Source: an uncultured Clostridia bacterium
Lineage (GTDB): Bacteria > Bacillota > DTU025 > MWDF01
Assembly: GCA_964577435.1 (NCBI GenBank)
Contig: CAZNZD010000002.1
Location: 27,642-91,641 of the forward strand
Direction: 5' to 3'
DNA length: 64,000 nucleotides
Under the pieces are notes generated by a model, which ran no database searches, was not told the origin of the DNA, and was given only the letters and a program-made list of their open reading frames with translations. The position numbers and the translations under genes were made by a program. Shown piece by piece: positions 1,818 to 44,670 of this stretch (within the stretch, counting starts at the first letter, position 1; each line of letters starts with the position of its first letter).

Positions 1818-2043
1818 AACAATGCCCCCGATCGGAGTAGAATCGCCGCCAGGCTTCGTTTCTTATATTATGATTAAGATATCATAGCTTGAGGGGCTAT
1901 GCCTCCCCGGCTCCATGCATTTTCCGAGAGATAGTTTACAGGGCATCTTCCTTGGAAGCTCGCCAGGCGAGTTTGCCCATAAACCTGTTCAGAGGAATTG
2001 GGATGGTCAATCATTAGCAAGTGTGATTGCAGGAAGGAAGGCA

Positions 2044-3225
2044 ATGCATAGAGTGACAAAGGCGAAAGAGGCGACAAGGAAAGTGGCCTTCCTGCTGTTT
2101 ATGGCCGTAATAGCTACAGTATTCACATTCGCTGGCAACCGCATGGTATCGGTAAGGGAAGAGCGCGCCTCGGACATAGACTTCGTGTCAGCAAGGGTGC
2201 TGTCCGTCGAGAAGGTAACAGACAATTCCCCGCTCGATGTATTCAGCCCTACTCCGGACGCAAGCAAGAGGGTCTATTTCACGGCCAGGTTCAGTGCGGG
2301 GGACATGTTGGGGACGCAGTTTAACGGGACCCAGGACATAGACTATGTGCTAGCCAACCCTCCTAGGCAGGTTAAACCGGGGGATAAGATCGTCGTGACC
2401 TTCTTCATGGGCGCAGACAGCGAGGAATACGGCTGGATTTACGTTGAGCACGACAGGAGCCTGGCCCTCATTGCGCTTGTCGGGCTTTTCTTCCTTCTCA
2501 TCATTGCGATCGGAAGGATGAAAGGGGCTGCGACCATACTTGCGCTTGCTTCCTCCGCCGCCGCGATATTCCTGGTCTACCTGCCTGCGATACTAAACGG
2601 CAGGAACATATATGCCGCTACTGTCTCGATCTCGGCGTATGTGATATTCATCAGCCTGGTTACGATAAACGGGTTCAACAGAAAAACTTTGTGCGCAATT
2701 CTGGGAAACGCGGGCGGTGTCGCAGTGGCGGCGCTTCTTGCCCTTGCGATTAACAAGGCCCTCGGCATAACCGGCTTCGTCAACGAGGACTTCACCATGC
2801 TCATCTACTTGGACAGGGCGACTCCCCTGGACCTCAGGGCGCTCGTCTGGGCCGGCATAGTCATAGGCTCGCTGGGTGCGGTGATGGACGTGGCCATGAC
2901 CATAGCATCCTCTATGAACGAACTTTCCGAGCACATGGCGGAGAAGAGCTTCAGGCGGCTTCTGGCATCCGGCATGAACATCGGACGGGACGCGATAGGC
3001 ACGATGACAAATACACTGATACTTGCCTACATCGGCAGCGCCCTGGCCATGGTTCTGCTTCTTGCCGAATATAATAAGAACCTGCTGTTCCTGTTCAATA
3101 TGGAGATGATAACAGTTGAGGTGGTGCAGGCTGTCGTAGGCACCATGGGCATACTATTCGCAGTGCCGTCCACCGCCGTTTTTGCAGCTTACATCTACAA
3201 CAGGAGAAAGCAGGAAGGACCGTAG
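2044..3225 (+). CDS. YibE/F-family integral membrane protein
   Basis: ORF track 1915..3225. The likely start is ATG 2044 after GGAAGG. It has an N-terminal TM helix, a soluble region and then a multi-TM core typical of YibE/F. Confidence 0.6.
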   Translation: MHRVTKAKEATRKVAFLLFMAVIATVFTFAGNRMVSVREERASDIDFVSARVLSVEKVTDNSPLDVFSPTPDASKRVYFTARFSAGDMLGTQFNGTQDIDYVLANPPRQVKPGDKIVVTFFMGADSEEYGWIYVEHDRSLALIALVGLFFLLIIAIGRMKGAATILALASSAAAIFLVYLPAILNGRNIYAATVSISAYVIFISLVTINGFNRKTLCAILGNAGGVAVAALLALAINKALGITGFVNEDFTMLIYLDRATPLDLRALVWAGIVIGSLGAVMDVAMTIASSMNELSEHMAEKSFRRLLASGMNIGRDAIGTMTNTLILAYIGSALAMVLLLAEYNKNLLFLFNMEMITVEVVQAVVGTMGILFAVPSTAVFAAYIYNRRKQEGP

Positions 3226-3298: not shown

Positions 3299-4414
3299 AT
3301 GAGACGCATTTCAGCGATACTGGTAGCCGTGCTGCTTGCTGTCGCCGTGCCTGCACTTCATGCATCGGCAGAACCGGCGGCAAAGCCCGACAGCCTCAGC
3401 CGTTCCCTTCTCGGGTTCTTCACCGAGATGGAGCAGATGAGCGCGCCTGGCTGGCTTGTACCCGGCCTGAGGGTAGTGTACAAGGTAAGAAACGAGGACT
3501 ACGCCGACCCCGAGAACAGCAGCGAAGGCTACCTGATATATGATGTGGTCGACGTCAAGGGAAGCTACATCGCAAGCACGATGGGCACATCGCACGATAC
3601 GGACGGTAAACCTACGGGGCTGATGTTCGGAAGCGTGCTGATGGACGTTCCGACCGTAGGCAGGTTCTGGATAACGCCGGAGCTCTTCGACGAGACAAAG
3701 GTGGCGAAGGACAAGTACGCCCTTTTCTACAACACCAAGATAAAGGTCCAGGGGCAGGAGTACGACGCCATGTTCATAGCCTTCGAATCGCAGACGGCAA
3801 GCAGGACGGCGGCCTATGACAAGGAGTCCGGGCTGTTGCTTGCCATAGAGATGAGCGTGACCGATTCGGAGGGCAAGCCCAAGGAGGGGTCTACCATAGA
3901 GTTCCTGGGAACTAGGCTTTCGTTCCCCGCATGGTACGAGGAAAACCTTACAGGGTTGTCGACCGGCACCACTCTCAGCTACAAGGCCGTTTACAAGATG
4001 AGCGGCAGCACAGAGGAGCAGGGCATGGTCCTTAAGGTCATCGAGAACAACGGGACATGGGCGCTCATTGAAAGGACGAGCCTCAGCTCCAAAGGAGAGC
4101 TTTCGTCATTCCAGCTGCTGTCATCCTCGGCAAGCGGGGATGTGTATGTGCTGTGGCTTCCAGTTAAGCTGCTGGGCGAGATGAAAGAGGGAGATACTGC
4201 ATTCGAGGAGGATTTGACGGGTTCCTCGGTGAAAGTAATGGGCATAGCTGAAGACCCTGATTTCGGCGCCGTCAGGAAGCTCCTTTTCATCGACAACGCC
4301 GTGCACACTGAGTGCGCGTTCAGCTTGAAGACGGGCTATATGGTGAGGATGCATCAGCTGCCGATAGCGAAGGGGATTCCGGAAGTGGAGTTCACCCTCT
4401 CTTCGGTCAAGTAA
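3299..4414 (+). CDS. Secreted hypothetical protein, paralog A of a three-member family
   Basis: Signal peptide MRRISAILVAVLLAVAVPALHASA. It shares the motifs GRFWITPELFDE, VLWLP and HQLP with the next ORF. Confidence 0.6.
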   Translation: MRRISAILVAVLLAVAVPALHASAEPAAKPDSLSRSLLGFFTEMEQMSAPGWLVPGLRVVYKVRNEDYADPENSSEGYLIYDVVDVKGSYIASTMGTSHDTDGKPTGLMFGSVLMDVPTVGRFWITPELFDETKVAKDKYALFYNTKIKVQGQEYDAMFIAFESQTASRTAAYDKESGLLLAIEMSVTDSEGKPKEGSTIEFLGTRLSFPAWYEENLTGLSTGTTLSYKAVYKMSGSTEEQGMVLKVIENNGTWALIERTSLSSKGELSSFQLLSSSASGDVYVLWLPVKLLGEMKEGDTAFEEDLTGSSVKVMGIAEDPDFGAVRKLLFIDNAVHTECAFSLKTGYMVRMHQLPIAKGIPEVEFTLSSVK

Positions 4415-4457
4415 GGATTTCCATGCCTGCCAAGGCAGGCGGATTTGGGGGTATCTC

Positions 4458-5591
4458 ATGAGGAACAGAGCAATTGTAGCGATACTGATAACAGCTGCGG
4501 TGATGATGTCATCCGCCTTCTCGGCGGCGGCCGCGCCGCCGCCCGAACCGATCCCGGGAACGCATACGGCGCTTGTGCTCGAGCAGCTGCCCGAACTGGC
4601 GGGCTACTCAATCGAACCGTGGATAATGACGGGTTACAGGCTCCTGTATAACGTCTATGTATACGACAAGGAAGACAATGTTACCAATGAGCAGCTCATT
4701 GTGATGGATACGATCGGCATAGGGGAAAGCTACCTTCTTACCCAGGTATACTCCGCGGAGCTCGATGAAGAGGGCAACATGGCCTCGTTCGAGCATACCG
4801 GATACAGAATCGACCATGCAGGGATAGGGGAGTTCTGGATCAGCCTGGAGCCCTTCGCCGACGAGAACTCCTCAGTAGTGAAATCCGGGCTGTTCACCCT
4901 CGAGAAGTATGATTGGAAGGGCGAGCCCGAGGACGCCTGGTATACATACCTGACCGACGAGGAGGGTAACACGGATTACGAGTACTACTACAGCAGCCTT
5001 GACGGGCTTCTTCTGAGCCTCGACGTGTATGAATACGACGAAGAGGACAACTACGCGGGCGGAGTCGCCTACAAGTTTGACGCATATTACTCATACGAGG
5101 CTCCATGGCTGGACTTCGGGCTCATGGAGATGCCCGAGGGGCTGGTTATGGACTACGACTTGCTGGTGAAGTTCCCGGACAGAGAAGAAGCGAAGGGCGT
5201 CATGACCTTCACCGTCGAGGAGAACCACTACTCCTGGGCATACGTGACGCAGGAGCTCGTCTCCGAGGACCTCGGAAACAGCACGGGCGCCAAGGTGATG
5301 TCTGAGATGTGCACGGACGGGCTTTTACTCTGGCTTCCCAGGGGCGTGATAAGAGAAGGCGACGAGGGCTCATCATACTTCGATGAGGCTGTGACAGGCT
5401 CCTACGTCTATGTAGGGGGGCTTTCCGAGGTAGAGGGGCTTGGGACTGCCAGGATGCTGTCCTTCGTCAATGGGTACTTCCAGGCAGATTCATACTTCAG
5501 CCAGGAGACTGGAGCACTGCTTAGGTATCATCAGCTCCCCAATGATACGCAGGACTTCGAGCTCATACTCACCCTCAAGGGCATAATGTAG
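4458..5591 (+). CDS. Secreted hypothetical protein, paralog B. It contains an acidic Tyr/Asp/Glu-rich insert.
   Basis: Signal peptide MRNRAIVAILITAAVMMSSAFSAAAA. Collinear motifs are GEFWISLEPFADE, LLWLP and RYHQLP. The insert reads YEYYYSS...YEYDEEDNY. Confidence 0.6.
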   Translation: MRNRAIVAILITAAVMMSSAFSAAAAPPPEPIPGTHTALVLEQLPELAGYSIEPWIMTGYRLLYNVYVYDKEDNVTNEQLIVMDTIGIGESYLLTQVYSAELDEEGNMASFEHTGYRIDHAGIGEFWISLEPFADENSSVVKSGLFTLEKYDWKGEPEDAWYTYLTDEEGNTDYEYYYSSLDGLLLSLDVYEYDEEDNYAGGVAYKFDAYYSYEAPWLDFGLMEMPEGLVMDYDLLVKFPDREEAKGVMTFTVEENHYSWAYVTQELVSEDLGNSTGAKVMSEMCTDGLLLWLPRGVIREGDEGSSYFDEAVTGSYVYVGGLSEVEGLGTARMLSFVNGYFQADSYFSQETGALLRYHQLPNDTQDFELILTLKGIM

Positions 5592-5658: not shown

Positions 5659-5877
5659 TCATCTTGCCAGCAGCTCATCGACCTTCGCCTTGACGCGAAG
5701 CTCGGCCTGTCTGGCAGCTGTGCGGTCCTTTCTCAGCTCGAAGCCGATCACAGAGCCGGGGCCCGCGTTAGGAGGCAGGGAAGACTGCGGCCATTTAACC
5801 GAGAGCGTAGGGTCTTCCATGCTCACGAGGCTTGCCATCCCCTCATCTATCGAGTCCACCATGAACCTTAGCTTCAT
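5659..5877 (-). CDS. Small DUF3006-like protein
   Basis: 72-aa ORF with SD GGGGGAG. The pattern MVDSIDEGMASLV...LSVKWPQSSLPPNAGPGSV...RTAARQAELRVKAKVDELLAR resembles DUF3006 (IVDRiEgd.AVle...lP..akeGDvl....e.e.rr.ei..L...L). Confidence 0.45.
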   Translation of the reverse strand: MKLRFMVDSIDEGMASLVSMEDPTLSVKWPQSSLPPNAGPGSVIGFELRKDRTAARQAELRVKAKVDELLAR

Positions 5878-5892
5878 TGCCTCTTCTCCCCC

Positions 5893-7005
5893 TCAAGGAT
5901 TGCATATCTTGCAGGGACGCTTGCCTTTGCTTACGGCATCCTCCCTGCTGGCGTACGTGACAAGGTTCGCTTTAGCTATGGAAGCCACCGCTTCGCAGTC
6001 CGAGATGTGGAAGACGGAGGAGCTCAGGCTTCCTACGTAAGTGGGCTTGGCCGCTGCAGGCTTGGCTATGGATACCGGCAATGAAGCTGCCTGCCTGCCT
6101 GCCTTCTGGCCATTCTCGGCCGAAGCCCACCAGCTTCTGCCGTCGCTGCTCACAGTGATGCTTCCGTTCAGGTCGGTCCTCATGACCTGCACACCTGCGT
6201 CCGAGAGCCTTTTAAGCGTATCCTGCTGCGGATAGCCATAGTCGTTCCCTTTGCCGGCGAAGATGACACCCAGCTCAGCGGATGCGGCCCTTAAGAAGTC
6301 GGACGAGCTTGAGTGCCGGCTTCCATGATGCCCCACCTTAAGAAGCTCCACCGGTGTAATCTTACCGGACCTCAGCAGGGCAGATTCGGTATCTACGCCG
6401 CAGTCCGCCATGAACAGCGCGTCGAAGTCCCCGTACTTAAGGTAGAAGGCTGCCGATGCGTTGTTCAGGTCCTGCGGGATGTCCTTGCCCGGCCATATGA
6501 AGATGATGCTGACATTGGCCCCTAGCTTGAAGGAAGATCCTTCCCGAATAAGCATGAATTTGGCTTTCGAAGCCTTAACGGCATCAAGGTAGTACTCGTA
6601 AGATGACGTAGGGTGCACCCTGCCTATGTCGTAAGCGGTTCCTACATCATAACGGCGGTAGACCTCAGAGAGGCCTCCTACATGGTCAGAGTGAGGATGT
6701 GTGGCGATTACACAGTCGAGCCGGAGAAGCCCTGATGCGTCTATTGCCTCGATGACAGCCGATACGTTCCTGTACTCGCCCGCGTCGATTAGCATGTACT
6801 TCCCGTCCGGCGACTTGATGAGGGTGGAGTCGCCCTGACCGACGTCGATGAAGGTTATCTCAAGAAGCCCGTTCTCTCCCGATGCCATCAGTGTGCCGAA
6901 TGACACAGCAGCCAGAATCAGTATGCAAACCGCACACGCAGCTATCCTTCCGGACCGGTTCCTTCTTGCATAAGGCTTGCTAGTCAAGCGGCAACACCCT
7001 TTCAT
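5893..7005 (-). CDS. MBL-fold hydrolase, ComEC/Rec2 C-terminal type, with an N-terminal TM anchor and a C-terminal Ada-like zinc-ribbon tail
   Basis: Motifs ITFIDVGQGDS and ATHPHSDHVGG, plus KVGHHGS. The C-terminus reads FHISDCEAV...RPCKICNP, which resembles Ada_Zn_binding. Confidence 0.7.
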   Translation of the reverse strand: MKGCCRLTSKPYARRNRSGRIAACAVCILILAAVSFGTLMASGENGLLEITFIDVGQGDSTLIKSPDGKYMLIDAGEYRNVSAVIEAIDASGLLRLDCVIATHPHSDHVGGLSEVYRRYDVGTAYDIGRVHPTSSYEYYLDAVKASKAKFMLIREGSSFKLGANVSIIFIWPGKDIPQDLNNASAAFYLKYGDFDALFMADCGVDTESALLRSGKITPVELLKVGHHGSRHSSSSDFLRAASAELGVIFAGKGNDYGYPQQDTLKRLSDAGVQVMRTDLNGSITVSSDGRSWWASAENGQKAGRQAASLPVSIAKPAAAKPTYVGSLSSSVFHISDCEAVASIAKANLVTYASREDAVSKGKRPCKICNP

Positions 7006-9891: not shown

Positions 9892-10096
9892 GCGGTTTAG
9901 CTTTACAATAATATCATTTTGGGTTCTTCCATTTCAATACCGTTGAAGCTCTTGCAGGAACTTCGTTAGTCCCGTATGCATGCAGCCCCTTCCGGCGTTT
10001 TCAGGTGCAAATCTGTGCGAAATGGCACATAATATAAGAGTAGGAAGTCATTTCATCAGGCAGGTCGTTCTCACAACACATATAGGAGGGATAAGA

Positions 10097-11227
10097 GTGA
10101 GGAAAGTACTAGTACTGGCACTTATGGCTGTCATGCTCATAAGCATGGTGGCGACCTCGGCGCCGGCGAAGATCGAAACCGAACTCAACGTTATCACACC
10201 CGTCGCATTGTTCGTCTCCGACGCCGCCCTGCAGGGCTTCGTCAAGTGGGCGAAGGCGAAGTACGGCGTAGACGTGAAGATCTCCAATACCTCCAAGGGC
10301 ACCCAGGTGGCGGCGGGAATGATCCGCGAATGGGGCGTCAATCCTCAGGCAGACATCATCTGGGGCGGAGAGACCGTCATATATGATGGCCTTGCGGCAG
10401 ACGGCTTCCTCATCAAGCACGAGGTGCCCCAGGCATACCTGGACAAGATACCCACCTCGATGGGATCTCCCAAACCCCTTCCGCTTAAGGACCCCAAGGG
10501 CTATTGGACCGGAACGGCGCTTGAGCCCTACGGCATAGTCTACAACGAGGGCCTCCTAATCAGAAGGCTCAGGTCGACCGCGCCTGAGACATGGGACGAT
10601 TTGGTCAGCAACCCCAAGCACAAGGGGCAGATCGCACAGTGCACGCCCGATAACTCGAGCTCGAGCCATGCGACATACGAAGTGATGCTCCAGATGCTCG
10701 GCGAGACCAAGGGCTGGGAATGGCTATCCAAGCTCGGCGCATATACCGGGCAGTTCGTGGCCCGTTCTAAGGACGTCCCCTCCGTGGTAGCCAAGGGCGA
10801 GTACGCGCTCGGCTTCGCGGTACCCAGCTATATGGCTTTCGAGGAGTTCCTCAACGGCTATGACATCAAGTTCGTGGCCCCTGCAGGCTGCTATGTGACC
10901 CCAGAGCCCATCGCCGTGATCAAGAACGCGAAGAATCCCAACACCGCAAAGGCGTTCATCGAGTACCTTCTGACCGAAGAAGGCCAGAGGCTCTTCATCG
11001 ACCGCGGCCTGTTCCCCATCATGCCTTCGATGAAGGTCGAGGGGGCGAAGGGCTCGACAGCCGAGCTTGCCGTCCAGTTCTACGGCGGGCGCAGGTCCTA
11101 CTTCGATGGCACCGTAGCCAACACCTATGACAACATACTCGCCGATGGCAGGTATGATTCCGTGAACAAGTACTTCCGCGACAACATCTTCGCCAAGATC
11201 GACGAGCTCAAGAAGAAGTACAACTAG
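10097..11227 (+). CDS. ABC transporter periplasmic substrate-binding protein, PBP2 family 1 of the Fe3+/thiamine/polyamine type
   Basis: Signal peptide with no lipobox Cys. It shows SBP family 1 motifs. The likely start is GTG 10097 after AGGAGGG. ORF track is 9980..11227. Confidence 0.7.
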   Translation: MRKVLVLALMAVMLISMVATSAPAKIETELNVITPVALFVSDAALQGFVKWAKAKYGVDVKISNTSKGTQVAAGMIREWGVNPQADIIWGGETVIYDGLAADGFLIKHEVPQAYLDKIPTSMGSPKPLPLKDPKGYWTGTALEPYGIVYNEGLLIRRLRSTAPETWDDLVSNPKHKGQIAQCTPDNSSSSHATYEVMLQMLGETKGWEWLSKLGAYTGQFVARSKDVPSVVAKGEYALGFAVPSYMAFEEFLNGYDIKFVAPAGCYVTPEPIAVIKNAKNPNTAKAFIEYLLTEEGQRLFIDRGLFPIMPSMKVEGAKGSTAELAVQFYGGRRSYFDGTVANTYDNILADGRYDSVNKYFRDNIFAKIDELKKKYN

Positions 11228-19149: not shown

Positions 19150-20250
19150 TTACTTGCCGAAAGTCTTGCTGTTGACGAGGTACACGAATGCGTTTCCGGC
19201 TTTCCTTTCGAACAGGGCGAGCTTCTGGCCGGCTACTTCCTCTATGACAGCCTGGATCGCCTTGTTGTCCTTGAGGCTTACCTTGCCCTCGAGCACCCTC
19301 TTGGCGAGCTCGATGTTGGCAGTGGTCTGGAGGTAGGGGCCGGGTACGGGCCAGGTCGCCATGCGGCCGGCCATGCCGGCTGCTACGATCTTCGCCTCGA
19401 TGGCTGCGAATATCTTGGTGTAGTTGCCCTTCATGTCGTCGGTGACCTCAAGTCCGATGGCGCCGGCATAGCCGTGCGTCGGGCTCGGGCAGCACTGCTC
19501 GGGATAGAGGGCCTTGGTCTGCATTACGGCCTTGATAAGGGGTTCCTGCATGCCGCAGTTGGTCGAGAAGAACGCGGTGTCCTTGCCGTACTTGGCAACC
19601 TGACGCGGGACGTCCTCGAGTATGAACTGCTGGGCTGCGGGCAGGCCGCCTTCTGCCATCGGGTCGGGGGCGGTCACGAACACGAAGTTGATCCCGAGCT
19701 TCTTGCACTCGTCGATCATGATGTCACGACGGTTGGAAAGCTCCTGCATCGCCATGTGGCGCGGGAACGAGTAGTGTATGAACGTCTTTGCGCCCATTGA
19801 CTTTGCGATCTGAGGGATGGTCCTGCCGCGGGTGGCATCGTCCGGCTTGAAGCCGAAGTCGACAGCCGCGCCGACGAGCGCGAAGTCCTCATGCGGCTCT
19901 CCTACGAAGAACAGCATGTCGGGGCGTAGCTCTTTCACCTTCTTGATCGCAGCGAGGGTGCCGGGAACTGCCTGGTTGATCACTATGGCCTTTACGTTCC
20001 TGTCGGCTGCAAGGCTGGTTATCTGGGAGATGTAGGTCTCCTGCTCAGCCATGAAGTTGTCAGGATAGGTCTTGTGCACGAGCAGGTCGGGGTACTTCTT
20101 GATCATGGCCTCGGCTCCGCGATATTCGTCCTCACCCTGGGAAACCGTTCCGGTGATGACGCCGATCTTGAAGCTTGCCGCGCTGACCATCATGCTGAAT
20201 GCGAGTACCAAGAGGATGGAGGCTACGAGGATCTTCTTCATTAAGTGCAC
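19150..20250 (-). CDS. ABC transporter periplasmic substrate-binding protein, BMP/PBP1-like
   Basis: Signal peptide MKKILVASILLVLAFSMMVSAAS with no lipobox Cys. It is the first gene of the CUT2 operon. The family assignment is tentative. Confidence 0.6.
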   Translation of the reverse strand: MHLMKKILVASILLVLAFSMMVSAASFKIGVITGTVSQGEDEYRGAEAMIKKYPDLLVHKTYPDNFMAEQETYISQITSLAADRNVKAIVINQAVPGTLAAIKKVKELRPDMLFFVGEPHEDFALVGAAVDFGFKPDDATRGRTIPQIAKSMGAKTFIHYSFPRHMAMQELSNRRDIMIDECKKLGINFVFVTAPDPMAEGGLPAAQQFILEDVPRQVAKYGKDTAFFSTNCGMQEPLIKAVMQTKALYPEQCCPSPTHGYAGAIGLEVTDDMKGNYTKIFAAIEAKIVAAGMAGRMATWPVPGPYLQTTANIELAKRVLEGKVSLKDNKAIQAVIEEVAGQKLALFERKAGNAFVYLVNSKTFGK

Positions 20251-26008: not shown

Positions 26009-26083
26009 GCGCCACTAGCTCAGTGGTAGAGCACCTGACTTTTAATCAGGGTGTCCTGCGTTCGATCCGCAGGTGGCGCACCA
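26009..26083 (+). tRNA. tRNA-Lys (anticodon TTT), CCA encoded
   Basis: gcgccac-ta-gctc-agtggta-gagc-a-cctga-cTTTtaa-tcagg-gtgtc-ctgcg-ttcgatc-cgcag-gtggcgc-a-cca. Confidence 0.9.
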
Positions 26084-27481: not shown

Positions 27482-27744
27482 CTAAATCGCCTCCTGATAC
27501 CAAAATGATATCACAGATATATCTTAACGCAAGGGGTTTTTCGAAGCACCCAACTTTTTACAGACGACGTAGATGAAGGGTAGAATGACCGGGCTCCGGC
27601 ACTGAATCGGTGTTATGGTAGCTCCCCAAGACGGCGCGCAGGAAGGTGGGAGGGAAACAGCTTATGTAAGGCACAATATGCTGGCATCGACATAATTTCC
27701 TCACAATTGGCGGATAGAATCGCATTAGGAATGATGCGGGAGGT

Positions 27745-29196
27745 ATGGACTTGTCTGGGAACCTGATCAATAGGGAATTGAGAATAGAGGGCATGGTCTG
27801 TTCCGGATGCGAGAACAGGATCGAGAAGAGGATTGCCGCCATGACCGGGGTGAGCAATGTGGCCGCCAGCTACAAGTCAGGAGTGGCAAAGGTCACATAT
27901 GATCCTGACACGGTAGACTTATCCGATATCATCTCCGAGGTGTCAGCCCTGGGCTACAAGGCGTCGGAGCAGAAGCCTGCAGGGAAAGGCAACGCCGGGC
28001 TGACTAAGACCATCGGCGCAGCCCTCGTGATACTAGCGACGTACTTCGTCCTCGACAGGCTGGGCGCTTTCGCGCTTTTCAACTCATTTCCGCTGGCCAA
28101 GCAGGGCATGGGCTATGGGATGCTGTTTGTCATCGGCCTTATGACTTCGGTACATTGCATCGCGATGTGCGGAGGCATCAACCTTTCTCAGAGCATCAGC
28201 ATGGATAATAAGCCGGAACCTAAAACCAAAGGGGTGGCGATTGAAGCCTTCAGGCCGCCTTTCCTTTACAACTTGGGTCGCGTCATATCGTACACGGTCA
28301 TAGGCGGAATCGTCGGCGCTCTTGGCTCCGTAGTGAGCTTCACAGGGTATACCAGGGGTGTTGTGCAGGTCGTAGCAGGCCTTTTCATGGTGATTATGGG
28401 TTTGAACATGATGGGTATCCTTCCGTCGCTCTCCAGGCTTGTGCCTGCGCTGCCGAAGGCATTGGGAGTGAAGGTGGGCAGATACCAGTCGGGAAGGAGC
28501 CCGCTCATCGTCGGGCTGCTAAACGGGCTAATGCCGTGTGGACCGCTCCAGGCGATGCAGCTATATGCGCTATCTACGGGAAATCCGGTGAGCGGGGCGC
28601 TTTCGATGTTCTTCTTCAGCCTCGGCACGGTTCCACTAATGTTCGGATTGGGGGCAGTAAGTTCAATGTTAAGCAGGAGATTCAAGGGTGGCCTTATGGT
28701 TGCGGGTGCGGTTCTGGTTGTGTTCCTGGGCGTAGTCATGTTCGGCAACGGCCTGAGCCTTTCAGGCGTGCAGGCTCCGGCGCTGGCGGCGGACAAACCA
28801 GCAGGAAGCGTGGCTCAGATAGTAAATGAGGTGCAGATAGTGAGCTCTAAGGTGCTGGCAAGCAGCTATGAGCCGATAATCGTCCAGAAGGGCATACCCG
28901 TACGCTGGACCCTCAAGGCCGATAAGGCGAGCATAAACGGATGCAACAACAGGATAATCATCCCGTCGCTCAAGAAGGAGAAGAAGATAGAGGCGGGAGA
29001 CAACGTAGTGGAGTTCACACCCCAGCAAAGTGGAGTGATACCCTTCAGCTGCTGGATGGGGATGATCAAAAGCAGGATAACTGTCGTGGACGACATCGGC
29101 GCCCTTTCTGGGGGCGCGCAGAAGAGCATATCGACGGAGGCCGCCCCTGAGGAAACAGATACTTCTCTTCCGGCGGTCCCGAGCTGCTGCCTGTAG
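27745..29196 (+). CDS. Tri-domain protein with an HMA metal-binding domain, a DsbD_2/TauE-like polytopic membrane domain and a C-terminal cupredoxin-like domain
   Basis: GMVCSGCENRIEK is an HMA GMxCxxC motif. MTSVHCIAMCGG and LMPCGP lie in TM helices. The C-terminus reads PVRWTLKAD..INGCNNRIIIP..FSCWMGM. Confidence 0.65.
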   Translation: MDLSGNLINRELRIEGMVCSGCENRIEKRIAAMTGVSNVAASYKSGVAKVTYDPDTVDLSDIISEVSALGYKASEQKPAGKGNAGLTKTIGAALVILATYFVLDRLGAFALFNSFPLAKQGMGYGMLFVIGLMTSVHCIAMCGGINLSQSISMDNKPEPKTKGVAIEAFRPPFLYNLGRVISYTVIGGIVGALGSVVSFTGYTRGVVQVVAGLFMVIMGLNMMGILPSLSRLVPALPKALGVKVGRYQSGRSPLIVGLLNGLMPCGPLQAMQLYALSTGNPVSGALSMFFFSLGTVPLMFGLGAVSSMLSRRFKGGLMVAGAVLVVFLGVVMFGNGLSLSGVQAPALAADKPAGSVAQIVNEVQIVSSKVLASSYEPIIVQKGIPVRWTLKADKASINGCNNRIIIPSLKKEKKIEAGDNVVEFTPQQSGVIPFSCWMGMIKSRITVVDDIGALSGGAQKSISTEAAPEETDTSLPAVPSCCL

Positions 29197-29321
29197 GCGT
29201 ACCGCTCAAGATCGCCCCGAAGGGAAGCAAAAACTCGGACGCCACGTTATATCATAGAGGGAGAAGGAAAGGGGCGTATTGGCCTCTTTCCGGATTCATC
29301 TGAGGTAGACGGAGGTTCGGA

Positions 29322-30023
29322 ATGGAGAACCAGTCGGGCAGGATACTTATAGTCGAGGACGAAGCCAAGCTGGCGGAAGCCCTGAAAGCCTATCTGCAGA
29401 GCAAGGGCTTCGAGGTCCTAATCGCAGAGGACGGGCTTCAGGCCCTGGCCATATTCGACAGGGAGGACATCACACTCATCCTGCTGGACCTGATGCTGCC
29501 TGGCATGTCGGGCGAGGACGTGTGCGCCAGCATAAGGCGCAGGTCCAGGGTTCCGATCATCATGCTTACGGCCAAGGCGGACGAATCAGACGTTGTCGGC
29601 GGCCTGGGTCTGGGAGCCGACGACTACGTCTCTAAGCCTTTCAGCCTGAAAGCCCTTTCGGCGAGGATGGAGGCGGTCCTCCGAAGGTCCAGGGCAACGG
29701 CCTCCCCCCTTTGCAGCAGGATATCGTTCAACGGCGGTGACCTCGAGATCGACCTCGAGAGAAGGTCAGTAAGGAAAGCCCGCGCGGACGTCAGGCTCAC
29801 GCCGAACGAGTACAGGATACTGACGACGCTTGTAAGCCAGCCGAAGAGGACATTCACGAGAGACGAGCTCATTGCGGGAGCCTTCGAGGACGAGTTCGAA
29901 GGATACGACCGGGCGGTTGACACACATATAAAGAACATCAGGCAGAAGATCGGCGACGATCCCAGGAAGCCCACCTACATAGTGACAGTCCATGGAATCG
30001 GATACCGCTTCGAGGGTGAGTGA
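29322..30023 (+). CDS. OmpR-family response regulator
   Basis: REC domain (ILIVEDE...LLDLMLPG) with a winged-helix C-terminus (YIVTVHGIGYRF). Confidence 0.85.
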   Translation: MENQSGRILIVEDEAKLAEALKAYLQSKGFEVLIAEDGLQALAIFDREDITLILLDLMLPGMSGEDVCASIRRRSRVPIIMLTAKADESDVVGGLGLGADDYVSKPFSLKALSARMEAVLRRSRATASPLCSRISFNGGDLEIDLERRSVRKARADVRLTPNEYRILTTLVSQPKRTFTRDELIAGAFEDEFEGYDRAVDTHIKNIRQKIGDDPRKPTYIVTVHGIGYRFEGE

Positions 30024-30024
30024 C

Positions 30025-31419
30025 ATGAAGTACAGCCTGAAGCACAAGCTTGCGCTGGCCATAGCCTTGGTGGCCCTTATCAGCGTCGCTGTCGCGACCA
30101 TGCTCTCAAGCTACATAATCAGAGACGAGTTCAACGGCTATATAGTTAGGCAGCAGGAGCAGAGGACGCAGGGCCTTGTCACAAGCCTGGAAATGCAGTA
30201 CAGGGCGAACGGAGGCGCATGGGACGCCGGGTTCGTCCATGCGCTGGGCATGGCTGCGCTCGACGACGGCTACATAATACGGGTCGAAGACGCCACAGGT
30301 GTTACGGTCTGGGATGCCCAGTCCCACGACACCAGCCTCTGTGAGGACATAATGAGAAGCATCTCCGAAAGGATGGGCAGCGAGTTTCCGCGCATCGACG
30401 GCTCGTTCGAATCCCATGAGATCATCCTTGGAAGCGGGGAGGGATCCTTCGGCAAGCTGATAATCGGCTATTACGAACCGTTCTTCCTGGATGAGAACGA
30501 CTTCGGGTTCATCCGGATGCTCAATGGCGTTACAGTCGGGGCAGGGGCGCTTGCAATCGCCCTGGCATCGGTCGCCGGCCTGCTTCTTGCTGCTAACATC
30601 AGCAGGCCGCTGCATAAGGCGGCGGAGGCCTCACGTCAGATCTCCGGGGGTAACTACAAGGTGAAGCTAGACGAGCGCGCCGACACGACGGAAATCGGCA
30701 TGCTTGTGAAGTCGATTAATCAGCTGGCCTCCTCGCTTGACAGGCAGGATGACATCAGAAGGCGGCTCGTGGAGGATGTATCTCACGAGATCCGCACGCC
30801 GGTGGCGATACTCCAGACCCACATCGAATCGATGGTCGAGGGCATTTGGCAGCCGACTTCCGAGCACCTGCAGAGCTGTTATGAGGAGGTGCTTCGCATC
30901 GGCCAGCTAATGGGCGATATCGAGGGGCTCAAGAAGGCCGGCGTCGGAGGCACAGCCCTGGAGAAGACGGAGTTTCGCATAATGGCCGCCTTGAAAAGAG
31001 CAGTCGAGGGTTTCGAGATGGAAATCCGCAGGAAAGGGCTCAATGTGGGCATCAGCGGGGACGATGTCACTGTGGTGGCCGATGAGGGCAGGATCTCGCA
31101 GGTCATAGTGAACCTTATGTCCAATGCGGTCAAGTACACCGAGGAAGGCGGGTCCATCGGCATTCAAGTCACGGGCTCAGACGACACTGTCAAGGTGAGC
31201 GTGACCGACGACGGGGCAGGCATCCCTGAAGACGAGCTGCCCTTCATCTTCGAGCGGTTCTACCGCGCCGACAAGTCCCGAAACCGCAAGACCGGAGGCT
31301 CCGGCCTGGGCCTTGCCATAGTGAAAAGCATAGTTGAGGAGCATGACGGCACGGTAAGCGCAGAAAGCGGGCCTGGCCAGGGCACGAAGTTCGAAGTGAC
31401 GCTGCCTAGGCAGCTATGA
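30025..31419 (+). CDS. Sensor histidine kinase, HAMP-HisKA-HATPase
   Basis: H-box SHEIRTP, N-box NLMSNAVKYT and G-boxes DDGAGIP and GGSGLGLAIV. ATG 30025 sits 1 nt after the response regulator stop. Confidence 0.8.
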   Translation: MKYSLKHKLALAIALVALISVAVATMLSSYIIRDEFNGYIVRQQEQRTQGLVTSLEMQYRANGGAWDAGFVHALGMAALDDGYIIRVEDATGVTVWDAQSHDTSLCEDIMRSISERMGSEFPRIDGSFESHEIILGSGEGSFGKLIIGYYEPFFLDENDFGFIRMLNGVTVGAGALAIALASVAGLLLAANISRPLHKAAEASRQISGGNYKVKLDERADTTEIGMLVKSINQLASSLDRQDDIRRRLVEDVSHEIRTPVAILQTHIESMVEGIWQPTSEHLQSCYEEVLRIGQLMGDIEGLKKAGVGGTALEKTEFRIMAALKRAVEGFEMEIRRKGLNVGISGDDVTVVADEGRISQVIVNLMSNAVKYTEEGGSIGIQVTGSDDTVKVSVTDDGAGIPEDELPFIFERFYRADKSRNRKTGGSGLGLAIVKSIVEEHDGTVSAESGPGQGTKFEVTLPRQL

Positions 31420-31737
31420 TTGGGCATCCCGGCCAGAAACTTCAGGGACGCATCTTTGCAGCCCTGCTTCATATCATAGCGGCTGAGAGATCAGGGACAT
31501 CGCAGCCGCAGGTATTACGCCCCTGAACCGTCGGTGGATCTGCCATGGTTCGACTATATGTCAGCAGCGCATTTCCCGACTTGTTGTTACTAAGGACCGT
31601 CGGAAGTGCCATACAGGAATTTACCACGCGAAAAGGAGTCATGCTTGTCAAAGTAGAAGATATATATTTTATTAGTCCAGATTCCATCTTGGTTACAAAG
31701 GGGTTTAATCTGGCAAGCTTGGTTAGAGGTGCTTTAC

Positions 31738-32586
31738 ATGGAAAGCAGGGCCTCCGAGATCATAAAGGCAGTCTTGGAATCGACGGGCAGGGACATCTCC
31801 CCGTTCGACCCTTCTTTTCTGGAAGTGGCTGCTGGCAAGAGGATGGAGAAGCTGTCTGCGAAGGATGCGGACAGCTACACCTTGCTGCTCAGTGCGGATG
31901 CAAAGGAGGCAGTAGCATACTCCGAATCCCTTGGCAACTCTTACAGCGAGTTCTTCAGGAACAGCCTTACGTTCTCGGTGCTTGAAAGGCATGTCATCCC
32001 AGCGTTGCTATCGCGCAAGAGCGAATCGGGGGGCGGCGAGATAAGGGTCTGGTCTGCCGGTTGTGCCGCGGGACAGGAGCCGTATTCGCTAGCTATCCTG
32101 CTTGCCGAGCTGGGGCTTGGCTGCGACACTGAGCCGCGCGTCAGAATCTTTGCAACAGACAGCAATCCAGACCAGGTTGAGATGGCCAAAGCAGCCCTCT
32201 ATGATGCCAGGAACCTTAGAAACGTAAGATTGAGCCACGTAAAGAAATATTTCACCAAGACTGGGGACAGATACAAGCTTAACGGAGCCATCAGGCAGAT
32301 GGTCGAGTTCTCGGTGCTGGACCTGCTGGATGACAAGCATGCGTTCCCGGCAAGCAGCATCTATGGGAGCTTCGACATCATCACCTGCTGCAATGTCCTT
32401 TACTACTACTCGACGGATTCTCAGAACAAGATAATAAACCGGCTCTTCAAGGCCCTGGGCAAGGGAGGCTGCATCGTAACCGACGAGGTGGAGAAGAGCG
32501 TAATCGATAGATTCAGAAGACTAAGGCCGCTTGAGTGGACATCGCCAGTATTCTGCCCGTCAGGTTGGGAGGATGAGCGCAAATGA
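31738..32586 (+). CDS. CheR-type SAM-dependent protein-glutamate methyltransferase
   Basis: EFFRNSLTFSVLE, IRVWSAGCAAGQEPYSLAILL and CCNVLYYY are CheR N- and SAM-domain motifs. ATG 31738 follows GAGGTG. Confidence 0.75.
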   Translation: MESRASEIIKAVLESTGRDISPFDPSFLEVAAGKRMEKLSAKDADSYTLLLSADAKEAVAYSESLGNSYSEFFRNSLTFSVLERHVIPALLSRKSESGGGEIRVWSAGCAAGQEPYSLAILLAELGLGCDTEPRVRIFATDSNPDQVEMAKAALYDARNLRNVRLSHVKKYFTKTGDRYKLNGAIRQMVEFSVLDLLDDKHAFPASSIYGSFDIITCCNVLYYYSTDSQNKIINRLFKALGKGGCIVTDEVEKSVIDRFRRLRPLEWTSPVFCPSGWEDERK

Positions 32587-35108
32587 AGATAAGATCTCAG
32601 TATATTCTTTATTTCGTTATACTATTCGCCCTCGTGCTGGCGCTCGGCGCCTTCTCTCTGTACCAGAATGAGAGCATCTGGCTACAGGCACAGGGGCTTT
32701 ACAACCATCCGTTCACGGTCAGCCGAACCCTTGCTACCATCAGCGAGGACGTACTGGCGATGCACCGCGCAGTGAAGGATTTCACCATAACGGAGAGTCA
32801 GCCATTCCGGCAGGAGCTCACCCATGAGATAGAACGGTCTGACGACGAAGTTATAGAGGCTATAGAGGTCCTGTATGACAGATACCTCGGGCCGAAGGCC
32901 GACGTGGACGACCTGCATGAGTCCTTCATATCCTGGAGGGCGATCAGGAAGGAGATAACCAGCCTGGCCGACTCAGGAGAGCGGCAGGAGGCCATCGTCT
33001 CCACCCTTCCGAGCGGAAACGGCGGCGCGAAGGTGGACGAGCTTATGGGGATTCTCAACAGGATCCAGAGTTTTGCAGATAACAAGGCCGAAGAGTTCAT
33101 AGGCGAGGCCGAGCAGAATAGGGATTCCCTCAGGCGGTCGCTGATCGCCTATCTTATAGCAGCTATTCTGCTGCTCGCCCTCATAGTCTACCTTCTTATC
33201 AGAAACACCCTAGTGCCGCTTCAATCGATGACAGAAACAGCCCGCAAGTTAGGTGAAGGAAACTACTCGGTAAGGTCCCCATACAGCTCGAAAAGCGAGC
33301 TTGGGGAGCTGTCGAGGACGCTGAACATAATGGCAGGAAACATTGAGGGCGACATAGCCCTCAAAGATGCGGCATCTGGCCTGATCGCTGAGGTCGTAGC
33401 CTCCGATGAGCCGTCCGAGTTCTTCAAGGATTGCGCAAAGGCCCTGGCCAGGGCGACCGGATCGCAAATCGCGGCGCTTTTCGTTCTTAACGTCGCATCC
33501 GGGGAGTTCGAGCACAAATCCTCGGTAGGATATCTTCCTGAAGGCAGGCTTGCATTCAAGGCGTCCCAGCTTGAAGGCGAGCTTGGGTTCGCCATGCTGG
33601 ACAGGGCTGTAAAGCATGTGAAGCTGCCCGCGGGGGATGCGCCTTTCATCTATCGGTCTGCGGTGGGCGACATCAGGCCCTCGGAGCTTTTGAACATCCC
33701 GCTCATATCCGGCGAGGAGGAACTCGGGTTCATAACGCTTGCAAGGACGGATAGCTACGACGAAGGGGACCTGAAGTTGCTTTCGGCGGTCCAGGACGTG
33801 CTCGCATCAAAGCTCTCCAGCATATTGTCGGCCATCAGGGCGAGGGAGTTCGCCGACATGCTCAAGAGGAGCAACTACGAGCTCGAGATCCAGGCAAGGG
33901 AGATCGAGACGCAGTCTAACGAGCTTATCCGGCAGAACACCGAGCTTGAGACCCAGAAGGTGAAGCTCGATGAGGCCAATAGGCATAAGAGCGTCTTCCT
34001 ATCCAACATGAGCCATGAGCTGAGGACGCCGCTAAACTCCATAATATCGCTTTCATCCGTGCTCTCCAGGCGCTTCAAGGACCATCTGCCTAAGCAGGAG
34101 GCGGAGTACATGGAGACCATAGAGAGAAACGGCAAGCATCTTCTTAGCGTGATCAACGACGTACTGGACTTGTCCAGGATTGAGGCAGGCAAGGAGGTCG
34201 TCCAGCTTGAGAAGGTGGACCTTAACTTCCTTGCCGAAGAGGCCGTCAAAATGCTTGAGCCCCAGGCAAGGGAGAAACAGGTGCCGCTTGTCTGCGAGAC
34301 GGATAGGGGCCTGCCGCTTGCTACCGCTGACGAGACGAAGGTAAGGCACATTCTAATAAACCTCATCGGAAACGCGATCAAGTTCACCGAGAAGGGGATA
34401 ATCCGGGTGATGACCTTCGAGGACGGGGACGACCTGTGCGTCGGAGTCACGGACACCGGAATAGGCATCCCGGAAGAGCATCTTGAGGACATATTCGACG
34501 AGTTCAAGCAGGCAGACGAGAGCAACACCCGCAAGCGCGGCGGCACAGGCCTGGGCCTTGCGATATCCAGGAAGTACGCCGAGCTGATGGGAGCTGCGAT
34601 AACGGTCAGAAGCAAGGTCGGCGCAGGTTCCTCATTCACACTCAGAATCTCAAAGGGTGGCAGTACGGATGCTGTCATTGCGGAAGGCAAGAAGCTTGAG
34701 AGAGGTAAAAACCATCTCGACCGCAGGGGAATGAGGCTGCTTCTTGTAGAGGACAGCGAACCTGCCATAGTCCAGATGCAGGACATACTCAGCGAGGCGG
34801 GCTTCGTCACTGAGGTCGCACGTGACGGAAGGCAGGCACTTGAGAGGATTGCGGCCGCAATGCCGGACGGGATCATCCTCGACCTGATGATGCCGGAAGT
34901 CGACGGTTTCGAGGTTCTAAGGCAGGTGAGGGGCATTGAGGAGACCGCGGGGCTGCCTGTCCTTATCCTGACAGCGAAGCAAGTCTCCAAGCAGGAGCTC
35001 AGCTTCCTGAAGGGGAACAACATAAGCCAGCTCATCGAAAAGGGCGATGTATCCAAGGACGAGCTTCTGACCGCTTTGGACAGGATGCTTGCACACAAGG
35101 GGAAGTAG
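32583..35108 (+). CDS. Hybrid sensor histidine kinase with 4HB_MCP-like sensor, HAMP, GAF, HisKA, HATPase and REC domains
   Basis: Two TM helices flank a roughly 150-aa helical sensor, then HAMP, a GAF-like region, H-box SHELRTPLN and a C-terminal receiver (LLLVEDSE...LDLMMP). It overlaps the cheR stop (ATGA). Confidence 0.8.
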   Translation: MKIRSQYILYFVILFALVLALGAFSLYQNESIWLQAQGLYNHPFTVSRTLATISEDVLAMHRAVKDFTITESQPFRQELTHEIERSDDEVIEAIEVLYDRYLGPKADVDDLHESFISWRAIRKEITSLADSGERQEAIVSTLPSGNGGAKVDELMGILNRIQSFADNKAEEFIGEAEQNRDSLRRSLIAYLIAAILLLALIVYLLIRNTLVPLQSMTETARKLGEGNYSVRSPYSSKSELGELSRTLNIMAGNIEGDIALKDAASGLIAEVVASDEPSEFFKDCAKALARATGSQIAALFVLNVASGEFEHKSSVGYLPEGRLAFKASQLEGELGFAMLDRAVKHVKLPAGDAPFIYRSAVGDIRPSELLNIPLISGEEELGFITLARTDSYDEGDLKLLSAVQDVLASKLSSILSAIRAREFADMLKRSNYELEIQAREIETQSNELIRQNTELETQKVKLDEANRHKSVFLSNMSHELRTPLNSIISLSSVLSRRFKDHLPKQEAEYMETIERNGKHLLSVINDVLDLSRIEAGKEVVQLEKVDLNFLAEEAVKMLEPQAREKQVPLVCETDRGLPLATADETKVRHILINLIGNAIKFTEKGIIRVMTFEDGDDLCVGVTDTGIGIPEEHLEDIFDEFKQADESNTRKRGGTGLGLAISRKYAELMGAAITVRSKVGAGSSFTLRISKGGSTDAVIAEGKKLERGKNHLDRRGMRLLLVEDSEPAIVQMQDILSEAGFVTEVARDGRQALERIAAAMPDGIILDLMMPEVDGFEVLRQVRGIEETAGLPVLILTAKQVSKQELSFLKGNNISQLIEKGDVSKDELLTALDRMLAHKGK

Positions 35109-35139
35109 CGAGACGAACCACCTTCAAGGAGGTCGACCG

Positions 35140-37989
35140 GTGAACAGATACAAGCTTCTTGCCATAGACGACAACGCCGACAACCTGCTCTCGCTGAGGG
35201 CAGTGCTTGAGGATTTCCTGCCGGACATAGCCTTCCTGACCGCAACCGACTGGGAAAGCGGAATAGAGACAGCCTTGCAGGAGGTGCCGGACGCCATACT
35301 CCTGGACATCGTCATGCCAGGGATGGATGGATATGAGGTCTGCAGGAGGCTTAAAGCCGAGGAGAAGCTAAAGGGGGTGCCTATAACCTTCCTTACGGCC
35401 TGGAAGACCAGCCCCGATGTGCACAAGCTGGCGATTGAGGCCGGCGCTGAGGGCTTCCTTACGAAGCCGTTCGACGAAGGCGAGCTGATTTCTCAGATCA
35501 AGGCCATGTTCAGGCATAGCTCGGCCGCCAAAGAGGAGAAGCTCGAAAAGGAGAGGCTCAGCGACGAGGTGATCAAGGCGACCGCGGAGCTTAGGCGCGA
35601 GCTGGCCGAAAGGCGTGAAGCCGAGATCAGGCTGCAGCTATCGAACGAAAGGCTCATGAGAAGCCAGCAGACGATGTCCGGCCTGCTGATCAAGCTTCGT
35701 AAGGAGAACGAGGCCCGGATCGAAAGCGAGAGGCACTTCAGGGACCTGGCGGATAACGGGATGGCGTTGGTGTGGACCTCCGGACTTGACATGAAGTGCG
35801 ACTACTTCAACAGGCCATGGCTGGAGTTCACTGGAAGGAAACTGGAGCAGGAGATGGGGGATGGCTGGATTACCGGGGTGCATCCCGATGACGCGGAGGA
35901 ATGTGGAAGCACCTACAGGAAAGCCTTCGATGGCAGGGAGAAGTTCAGCATGACCTACAGGCTCCGAAGGCACGACGGGGCTTATCGGTGGCTGGTCGAC
36001 GAGGGCACGCCGAGGTATGACGCCGGAGGGGAGTTCATCGGCTATATCGGGCATTGCCTGGATATCACTGACGAGCTGGAGGCAAGGGAGATAGCCCAGA
36101 AGAGCGAGGAGAAGTTCCGCCTGTTGGTCGAAAGCGCCCCTGTAGGCATCTTCATCCAGACTGAAAGGCGTTTCAGCTACCTGAATCAGAACGCGCTCAG
36201 GATGTTCGGGGCGGAGTCAGAGGACCAATTGATCGGTACGCCGATACTAGACAGGTTCCATCCAGATTATCACAAGACGGTGAACGAGAGGATCCATGAG
36301 CTCAACAATAAGAAGCATGATGTGCCTAACATCCAGGAGATGTGCCTTACTGTCGATGGCGAGCCGTTCTTCGTGGAAGTATCGGCAGTCCCCATCAACT
36401 TCGATGGCAAGGACGGGGCGCTGGTCTTCTTCAATGACATCTCAGCAAGGAAAAGGGCGGAGGCCCTACTTGAGGAGGAGAGGCTCAAGCTTGTCAGCAT
36501 GACCAATATGCTCAATACACTGCTTGACAGCATACCAGACGGCATCCTTCTGCTTGACAGGGAAGGCAGGATCGAATGGGCCAACACGGCGGCCAGGAAC
36601 CTGGTAGCGGACGGAAGGCAGCTCGCTGAAGGCGGCAACTGCAACAGCTTCCTTTTCGGTTCGGATGGGCCTTGCGATGAATGCCCGCTAGAGGGAGTCT
36701 TCGACAGGGGAGAGCAGGTCAACTGGGAACGCCTTCTGGATAACGGGTCCTCCTGGGACATAAGGATAGTGCCGATCGCCGATGCCACGGGCAGCTACCA
36801 CCGGGCAATCGAGATCATCCGGGACGTGACAAAGCAGAGGAAAACGGAGGAGCAGCTGAGGCAATCTCAGAAGATGGAATCGGTAGGAAGGCTCGCTGGA
36901 GGCGTGGCACACGATTTCAACAACCTGATAACGGCAATATTAGGCAACTGCGAGATGGCGATGATGGACCTTGCCGAAGGCGACGCGGTCAGGGAATACC
37001 TCCGTGATATCCGCAAAGCCGGGGAGAACGCCTCAGGCCTTACAAGGCAGCTTCTGGCATTCAGCAGGAGACAGGTGCTTCAGCCCGAGGTGATGAGCCT
37101 GAACCAGGTGATCGAGGAGAACCGCAGGATGCTCTCCCGGCTCATGAGAGAGAACATCAGCTATGAGGAGAAGCTTGAAAGCGGGCTCTGCCCCATAGAG
37201 GCAGACAAGAGCCAGGTGGAGCAGGTCCTGATGAACCTCGTCATCAATGCGTCCGATGCCATGCCGGACGGCGGCACGCTCACCGTCGAGACTTTCGGCA
37301 CCGACATAACCCCGGGGCAAATCGCAGCGCAAGGCGAGATGGAACCCGGAAGGTATGCAGTCCTTGCGGTAAGCGATACCGGTATCGGCATGAGCGAGAG
37401 CACCATGAAGCAGATCTTCGAACCTTTCTTCACAACCAAGGACAAGGAGAAGGGGACCGGCCTCGGGCTTTCCACCGTCTATGGAATAGTGAACCAGAGC
37501 AGGGGCTACATCTCGGTGTACAGCGAGATAGGCAAGGGCAGCACTTTCAAGGTCTACCTGAGATGTGTGGACAAGCAGGTAGCCACGGAAACCGGCAGGC
37601 AGACTGAAGCCCTTTCCGGAAACGAGCGGATCCTTCTGGTGGAAAACGACGTCGGCGTCAGGACCATCATCGCAAAGCAGCTGAGGCAGTTCGGATATAA
37701 GGTGACGGAAGCGCCGGACGGCGAGGAGGGTTTGAGGATCTTCAAGGTTGATGCTGACGGCTTCGACCTGATACTGACTGATGTGGTCATGCCCAGGCTC
37801 GGGGGAAGGCAGATGGCCGAGGAGGCGGCAAAGCTTCGGCCCGGCCAGAAAGTCCTGTACATGTCGGGGTACACCGAAAACAGCATTGTCCATAACGGCG
37901 TGCTTGAGGCGGGAGTGCAGTTCATCGGGAAGCCTTTCACCGCGGAGGGGCTTGCAAGGAAAGTAAGGTCGATCCTGGACTGGGCATGA
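35140..37989 (+). CDS. Hybrid histidine kinase with REC, three PAS domains, HisKA, HATPase and REC
   Basis: N-terminal receiver (LLAIDDNADN...LLDIVMPGMDG), repeated PAS cores, HDFNNLIT H-box and a C-terminal receiver. The likely start is GTG 35140 after AAGGAGG. Confidence 0.8.
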   Translation: MNRYKLLAIDDNADNLLSLRAVLEDFLPDIAFLTATDWESGIETALQEVPDAILLDIVMPGMDGYEVCRRLKAEEKLKGVPITFLTAWKTSPDVHKLAIEAGAEGFLTKPFDEGELISQIKAMFRHSSAAKEEKLEKERLSDEVIKATAELRRELAERREAEIRLQLSNERLMRSQQTMSGLLIKLRKENEARIESERHFRDLADNGMALVWTSGLDMKCDYFNRPWLEFTGRKLEQEMGDGWITGVHPDDAEECGSTYRKAFDGREKFSMTYRLRRHDGAYRWLVDEGTPRYDAGGEFIGYIGHCLDITDELEAREIAQKSEEKFRLLVESAPVGIFIQTERRFSYLNQNALRMFGAESEDQLIGTPILDRFHPDYHKTVNERIHELNNKKHDVPNIQEMCLTVDGEPFFVEVSAVPINFDGKDGALVFFNDISARKRAEALLEEERLKLVSMTNMLNTLLDSIPDGILLLDREGRIEWANTAARNLVADGRQLAEGGNCNSFLFGSDGPCDECPLEGVFDRGEQVNWERLLDNGSSWDIRIVPIADATGSYHRAIEIIRDVTKQRKTEEQLRQSQKMESVGRLAGGVAHDFNNLITAILGNCEMAMMDLAEGDAVREYLRDIRKAGENASGLTRQLLAFSRRQVLQPEVMSLNQVIEENRRMLSRLMRENISYEEKLESGLCPIEADKSQVEQVLMNLVINASDAMPDGGTLTVETFGTDITPGQIAAQGEMEPGRYAVLAVSDTGIGMSESTMKQIFEPFFTTKDKEKGTGLGLSTVYGIVNQSRGYISVYSEIGKGSTFKVYLRCVDKQVATETGRQTEALSGNERILLVENDVGVRTIIAKQLRQFGYKVTEAPDGEEGLRIFKVDADGFDLILTDVVMPRLGGRQMAEEAAKLRPGQKVLYMSGYTENSIVHNGVLEAGVQFIGKPFTAEGLARKVRSILDWA

Positions 37990-38052
37990 TTTCTTGAAAG
38001 GCGCAGATATTGGCCGGACCAAGTCACAATCTCGATCAAGGGGGAGTCCAAG

Positions 38053-40130: not shown

Positions 40131-40574
40131 TTCATAAGACAGTGAAGGCCCCTGTAGACCGCAGATCCCGCTTGCCATGACCGACCATTGCCGGAGCGCT
40201 GATCCTGACGGATAAGCGCTGCTATAGGCATCTGGTACATTTGGCGTGATATTATACCATATTGCGATAACCCCGCAGCCTTGCGGGATCTCTCTAAGAT
40301 CAGCAACCCGCTTCAGGCATCGCTGAAGTCATATGCCCCGGACTTGACTTAGATGGCATCATACTCGCGCGTAGTTATTGCGCATATCACCACATTTATA
40401 AGTATATGGGCATCCGATTGAGATGCGCGCAGCAGCTCGCCGTCGTTCAAGCTGGAAGCTATTTACAGAATATGATTGAAGTTTTTAAATAAACAGGTTA
40501 TCAGATAGGTTCAGATATTGAAAGTACTTGCTTTCTTAGCATTCGGGAATAAAATGTAGGAGTTAGGAAAGAAG

Positions 40575-44661: not shown

Positions 44662-44670
44662 GGGATGAAA

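Follow-up and report, generated by a model that had tools for sequence, protein, structure and literature searches.

The analysed DNA (the window) is a stretch of 64,000 nucleotides of contig CAZNZD010000002.1 (GenBank assembly GCA_964577435.1) from an uncultured Clostridia bacterium. It contains a tandem pair of genes, here called A and B, and a third gene, C, located 42 kb away. Their products are not filed in any named family; the family is new at sequence level, but its fold is familiar. The best explanation, which we hold with about even confidence, would be that A, B and C are exported, non-enzymatic envelope proteins that bind a ligand or a partner protein. The features of the three genes are as follows.

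3299-4414, + strand: paralog A, 371 amino acids (aa), predicted exported double LolA-like barrel protein, with a AAGGGGGAG ribosome-binding site
3299-3370, + strand: predicted Sec signal peptide of A, residues 1-24 (...ALHASA/EP), with predicted cleavage between A and E according to the -3/-1 Ala rule
3431-3934, + strand: domain 1 of A, approximately residues 45-212, first copy of the ~165-aa repeat (DSSP strands 57-207; hhalign)
3935-4411, + strand: domain 2 of A, approximately residues 213-371, second copy, predicted LolA-like unclosed barrel (domain-only AlphaFold2 model, Foldseek)
4458-5591, + strand: paralog B, 377 aa, A/B-branch member that is very acidic and rich in Tyr
46983-48167, + strand: paralog C, 394 aa from TTG 46983, mainstream-type family member

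Genes A and B are both on the + strand and are separated by 43 bp. Pairwise BLASTP aligned their products over the full length (E 8e-27, 26% identity, 332 columns, 5 gaps), and A and B also aligned with C (E 1e-11 and 6e-7, respectively). This similarity is well beyond chance and A, B and C are true paralogs. A preliminary description, made from the sequence alone, had proposed precisely this tandem pair with a third, distant copy, and the shared motifs that it quoted were located: G.R..Y.V, G.FWI, LWLP and HQLP are present in both A and B, and P.WL..G....Y.V and YDVV in both A and C. Scanning all six frames of the window with the family profile revealed the same three copies (458-578 bits) and no fourth copy above noise. 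For C, an alternative start at ATG 46965 would give a protein of 400 aa; TTG 46983 is the more likely start, because it is preceded by a GGGAGGTG ribosome-binding site.

Neither Pfam (E<=1) nor NCBIfam gave a match for A, B or C. The same was true for 90 diverse relatives in Pfam (E<=0.01), for 14 mainstream relatives in NCBIfam, and for searches of the PDB sequences with single sequences or profiles. The family had been called unrecognised, which is correct at the sequence level. An exhaustive profile search, which likewise led to no well-characterised family, yielded 667 clusters (50% identity) at E<=1e-3, 414 at E<=1e-10 and 62 at a cut-off of 1e-30, and overturned the tiny family of 9-15 clusters obtained in word-indexed homolog searches. 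All 667 clusters are unnamed or 'hypothetical', and the few source names are Chloroflexota/Ardenticatenaceae and Myxococcales metagenome-assembled genomes (MAGs). Among the matches listed, most have a length of 360-560 aa. The family extends over several phyla, with a broad but sparse phyletic spread. A subgroup scan of metagenome loci returned only 3 loci.

A, B and C each have the features of the family, i.e. a full-length profile match, an N-terminal export signal and two homologous halves. In BLASTP, C matched 146 of 150 family representatives and A matched 134, but B only 11. C is therefore the typical family member, and A and B form a divergent, lineage-specific tandem branch. The residues that are near-invariant in the family include Trp at four positions, Arg 58 and Arg 206 (numbering of A), a D-x-D-P-x-T-G motif and a Y-D pair; several polar residues are 94-98% conserved family-wide. 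C retains D327, D329, P330, T332, R225, Y366 and D367. In A and B, Phe and Glu take the place of the two Asp residues of D-x-D, and F-S that of the Y-D pair; B has additionally lost Arg 206.

The two halves of the proteins were compared using profiles of approximately 145 sequences each. hhalign matched the N-terminal half to the C-terminal half with a probability of 97.5% (E 8.5e-12) over 132 collinear columns; a shallow alignment of 15 sequences gave a weaker match between the halves (E 9e-4). In view of this collinear match, each protein is an internal duplication of a ~165-aa domain. Common to each half are P-x-W, G-x-x-(L/V)-x-Y, G-x-W-x-x-P followed by a helix, and (F/Y)D-x-x-x-G-x-L.

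Structure prediction, named in the preliminary description as a check and run here on A, gave a confident all-beta model of two domains resembling LolA-like half-barrels. The AlphaFold2 model of full-length A had a predicted local distance difference test score (pLDDT) of 84.4 and a predicted template modelling score (pTM) of 0.80, and domain 2 modelled alone reached a pLDDT of 90.1 and a pTM of 0.85. When full-length A was compared to the PDB with Foldseek, BFA1 (E 2e-6) and MucB (E 1e-5) were found, together with DUF3598, RseB, hemophilin, AttH and LolA. The template modelling score (TM) of these full-length matches was only ~0.2, which indicates that the two domains are placed differently relative to each other than in the matched structures. 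For domain 2, the majority of the 25 best matches were LolA-type structures (LolA, LolB, RseB/MucB, NE2245, DUF1329 and ependymin-related proteins), besides the YmcC-like structure 3fzx. The latter, the exported BF2203, was the best single-domain match (TM 0.54); LolA of P. aeruginosa (TM 0.52/0.48, root mean square deviation (rmsd) 5.9 Å) and RseB (TM 0.51) scored similarly. We therefore assign the predicted fold, with moderate confidence, to the class of LolA-like unclosed barrels. BFA1 and DUF3598 (5yvf, 2o62) also consist of two consecutive barrels and gave the best full-length Foldseek match, over ~390 aligned columns. However, the TM was 0.16-0.23 and the rmsd 23 Å, and Pfam DUF3598 did not match. 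BFA1/DUF3598 proteins are cytoplasmic or plastid proteins; in the literature on them nothing further bearing on A, B or C was found.

The N-termini of A, B and C were read by eye. All three start with a basic segment, continue with a hydrophobic core and end in an Ala-x-Ala site; the apparent cleavage sites are HASA|EP, FSA|AAA and ASA|SS, respectively, and none has a lipobox Cys. The signal peptides that had been predicted for A and B are in agreement with these Sec-type N-termini, and C has one likewise. In the AlphaFold2 model of A, residues 1-30 have a pLDDT below 50. A hydrophobic N-terminus was present in 130 of the 150 family representatives, 24 of which also have a lipobox, and most of the remaining 20 appear truncated. 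In many mainstream members the lipobox is followed by a long Pro/Thr/Ala-rich linker. These data support the export and envelope location suggested at the outset.

LolA-like domains generally hold acyl chains or lipids, as in LolA/LolB and RseB, or serve as docking modules. Since this is so, non-enzymatic binding of a ligand or a partner would be the most likely role of A, B and C, and we infer both the binding and the absence of catalysis. Under this explanation, each protein would have arisen by an ancient duplication of the ~165-aa domain, each copy forming an unclosed antiparallel beta-barrel with a short helix after G-x-W-x-x-P. The concave face of each half-barrel would most likely either dock a partner or hold an envelope ligand of hydrophobic or amphipathic character (lipid, acyl chain or glycolipid). 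C would represent the ancestral-type copy, which occurs singly across several phyla and is often lipid-anchored via a Pro/Thr-rich linker. A and B would derive from a tandem duplication inside one uncultured Clostridia lineage. As several family-invariant polar residues have been replaced in A and B and purifying selection has been kept, their specificity has probably been altered. Of the ligand-binding function proposed earlier, the general part is thus favoured by the LolA-like fold, for either a ligand or a partner; a transition-metal ligand is unlikely.

Three observations weigh against this explanation. A sequence link of the domain profiles to E. coli LolA or RseB was not found (hhalign probability below 1%). 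Direct homology to LolA or RseB was rejected on this basis and membership of a named family was withheld. The genomic context is not conserved in the wider family and gives no functional hint. Finally, the residues conserved family-wide (D-x-D-P-x-T-G, Arg and Trp) may belong to a polar or catalytic site and not to a lipid pocket. Genomic context does not separate ligand binding from partner binding either, as the neighbours differ at every distant locus examined.

It is conceivable, if somewhat unlikely, that the proteins are protein-binding regulators and not carriers of small ligands, with LolA-like domains that dock on and control an envelope enzyme or an anti-sigma factor. RseB/MucB, which bind RseA/MucA, are exported two-domain beta proteins of similar size and rank among the best Foldseek matches of both the full-length model and domain 2 (E 1e-5 to 2e-3; domain TM 0.44-0.51). 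In addition, A and B are adjacent and could work as a pair. Unlike in A, B and C, where the halves are clear duplicates, the domains of RseB are unequal; the whole-protein TM of ~0.2 indicates a different domain arrangement, and Pfam MucB_RseB did not match A, B or C. No rpoE- or rseA-like neighbours were seen: A and B adjoin genes for YibE/F, PHP, DUF3006 and metallo-beta-lactamase (MBL)-fold proteins, and C adjoins TrkH and GNAT genes. Nor was a sigma/anti-sigma, amidase or other partner gene conserved beside the family members at the loci examined. A regulatory rather than a carrier role is known for GerS, a LolA-like lipoprotein of Clostridioides difficile that activates the amidase CwlD (bioRxiv 10.1101/2025.01.13.632879), and LolA-like exported proteins with non-carrier roles thus occur in Clostridia. 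GerS and BF2203 are, unlike A, B and C, single-domain proteins to which no sequence relation was detected.

Alternatively, the family could be an unrecognised class of envelope lipid or lipoprotein carriers with two LolA-like domains, which occurs in several phyla, including Chloroflexota and Clostridia MAGs, in which a Lol pathway is not expected. In such bacteria it would ferry hydrophobic envelope molecules across the wall zone or present them there, with A and B specialised for other cargo in this Clostridia lineage and possibly forming a heterodimer. We consider this quite unlikely. Like LolA/LolB, the proteins have an export signal, and each of their domains is predicted to be an antiparallel unclosed barrel of ~10 strands plus a short helix; domain 2 matched LolA of several species and LolB with a Foldseek probability of 1.00 (TM 0.35-0.52). 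In contrast to LolA/LolB, they share no sequence similarity with these proteins, have two tandem domains instead of one, have relatives that are often lipoproteins themselves, and are encoded by a Clostridia MAG. Lol machinery genes were not seen among the window genes scanned, and no lolCDE-like gene adjoins A, B or C.

An enzymatic function on a double-barrel scaffold, as in AttH/CrtC-type hydratases or Fsa2-type pericyclases, with D-x-D-P-x-T-G, Arg and Tyr as the active site, is improbable. The strong family-wide conservation of polar residues would fit an enzyme, and AttH (2ich) and Fsa2 (7e5t) were among the full-length Foldseek matches. However, these matches were weak (probability 0.14-0.57, TM 0.10-0.15), and the conserved Asp residues are missing from A and B, both of which nonetheless remain under strong purifying selection; for both reasons the enzymatic role is less likely. 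Furthermore, the domain-level Foldseek matches are mainly non-enzymatic carriers.

Expansion of the paralogs had initially been taken as a sign of diversifying pressure. Ratios of nonsynonymous to synonymous substitution rates (dN/dS) of the orthologs were determined by the Nei-Gojobori method between the window and two close MAGs. They were 0.07-0.10 for A and 0.045-0.066 for B, compared to 0.065-0.175 for six neighbouring genes. A and B are under ordinary purifying selection, and diversifying selection was rejected, because the values are the same as or below those of the neighbouring genes. The highly improbable reading of A, B and C as surface adhesins or variable envelope proteins under diversifying selection, or as metal-binding proteins, could draw on the export of tandem paralogs, on the further duplication of B in related MAGs and on the extreme acidity of B, which could bind cations non-specifically, but against it are these dN/dS values, the lack of a wall-anchor, SLH or repeat domain in A, B and C (Pfam), the LolA-like fold, which gives no support to an adhesin, and the absence of His and Cys from the 45 best-conserved columns of the family, which makes a transition-metal site unlikely.

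B had also been described as carrying a low-complexity acidic, Tyr-rich insert. In the BLASTP alignment, however, YEYDEEDNYAGG of B pairs without gaps with the VTDSEGKPKEGS hairpin of A, and it is conserved in the B orthologs of other MAGs. The insert was rejected because of this gap-free match to a beta-hairpin of A. B is acidic and Tyr-rich throughout (pI 4.05, 65 D+E versus 16 K+R, 8.9% Tyr), a composition that is common to the B-type orthologs.

The value of these findings lies mainly in annotation, as a surprising mechanism is not indicated. An unnamed family of at least 667 clusters from several phyla, with no studied member, now has a predicted fold, an architecture and a set of near-invariant residues, so that it could be entered as a new DUF and studied in simple binding experiments. 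Unexpected roles are emerging for LolA-like proteins that act outside the classical Lol pathway, as in the case of GerS.

Gene A was found by genome scan in four other MAGs, namely two 'uncultured Clostridia bacterium' binchicken isolates, the 'Bacillota bacterium' Go_SlDig bin and 'Firmicutes bacterium ADurb.Bin153', for which the literature offered nothing further. Sequencing run SRR10083294 also yielded, on a short assembled contig, an identical copy of A. The gene order in the window and in a close relative (locus L002) is PHP (-), YibE/F (+), A, B, DUF3006 (-) and MBL-fold/Ada-Zn (-), and locus L003 has orthologs of all genes of this set. The position of the tandem cluster between the PHP gene and the DUF3006/MBL genes is conserved in four other MAGs. 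Two distant MAGs contain three tandem copies (A, B' and B'') without YibE/F. In one of them (L004, 8980-10162, Go_SlDig_bin_374) the middle copy is split by a frameshift into two overlapping open reading frames (ORFs), which represents either a pseudogene or an assembly error.

The gene for the YibE/F-family membrane protein (1915-3225, + strand), which has a long N-terminal extension, ends 74 bp upstream of A. A functional link of A and B to YibE/F was dropped, as YibE/F is absent from the more distant syntenic loci. On the other side (5659-7005, - strand) lie the gene for the small DUF3006 protein and then that for a membrane-anchored MBL-fold protein whose C-terminal part is a zinc-binding domain of the Ada type. 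At the related MAG loci that were compared (L002-L005), as in the window, these two genes adjoin the paralog cluster.

The TrkH and GNAT neighbours of C were identified by Pfam. In a sister MAG the C ortholog is located on another contig, with the downstream GNAT gene as the only shared neighbour. No recurring neighbour gene was found in the Myxococcales and metagenome loci or around C orthologs, and an operon-based function was dropped, as none recurs across the loci examined. Between trkH and C there is an ORF of 163 aa (46313-46804, + strand) with a signal peptide, a C-terminal hydrophobic, Arg-rich tail and no Pfam match. Its start overlaps the trkH stop (ATGA) and it lies 179 bp upstream of C.

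Comparison with the sister MAG by blastn revealed that ~19.5 kb (window 27500-47100 versus L006 7817-8118) between a Band_7 gene and the C ortholog is absent there. Here, close relatives differ by a large indel or a rearrangement. The block contains DsbD/HMA, an OmpR-type two-component pair, CheR, hybrid histidine kinases, an HD-PAS protein, TrkA/TrkH and the 163-aa exported ORF. A dense signalling cluster (31729-42479, + strand) comprises genes for a CheR methyltransferase, a 4HB_MCP-HAMP hybrid histidine kinase, a response-regulator/multi-PAS kinase, an ODP-family MBL protein, a PAS-HD protein and a further PAS kinase. The sister MAG contains a block of small ORFs (L006 1-4912), one of them encoding a phage Gp80-like protein. 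This block ends at a 46-bp copy of the tRNA-Lys 3' end (window 26009-26083), which suggests a mobile element integrated at the tRNA-Lys gene.

Two ABC-transporter solute-binding proteins (9980-11227, + strand, and 19150-20250, - strand) have signal peptides without a lipobox cysteine. This is not usual in a Firmicute with a single membrane and could point to a compartment resembling a periplasm or to binding proteins anchored in the membrane. Finally, two adjacent uncharacterised ORFs (55544-56197 and 56333-57856, + strand) lack a Pfam match and have N-termini of the export type, one of which includes a lipobox-like SSSGC.
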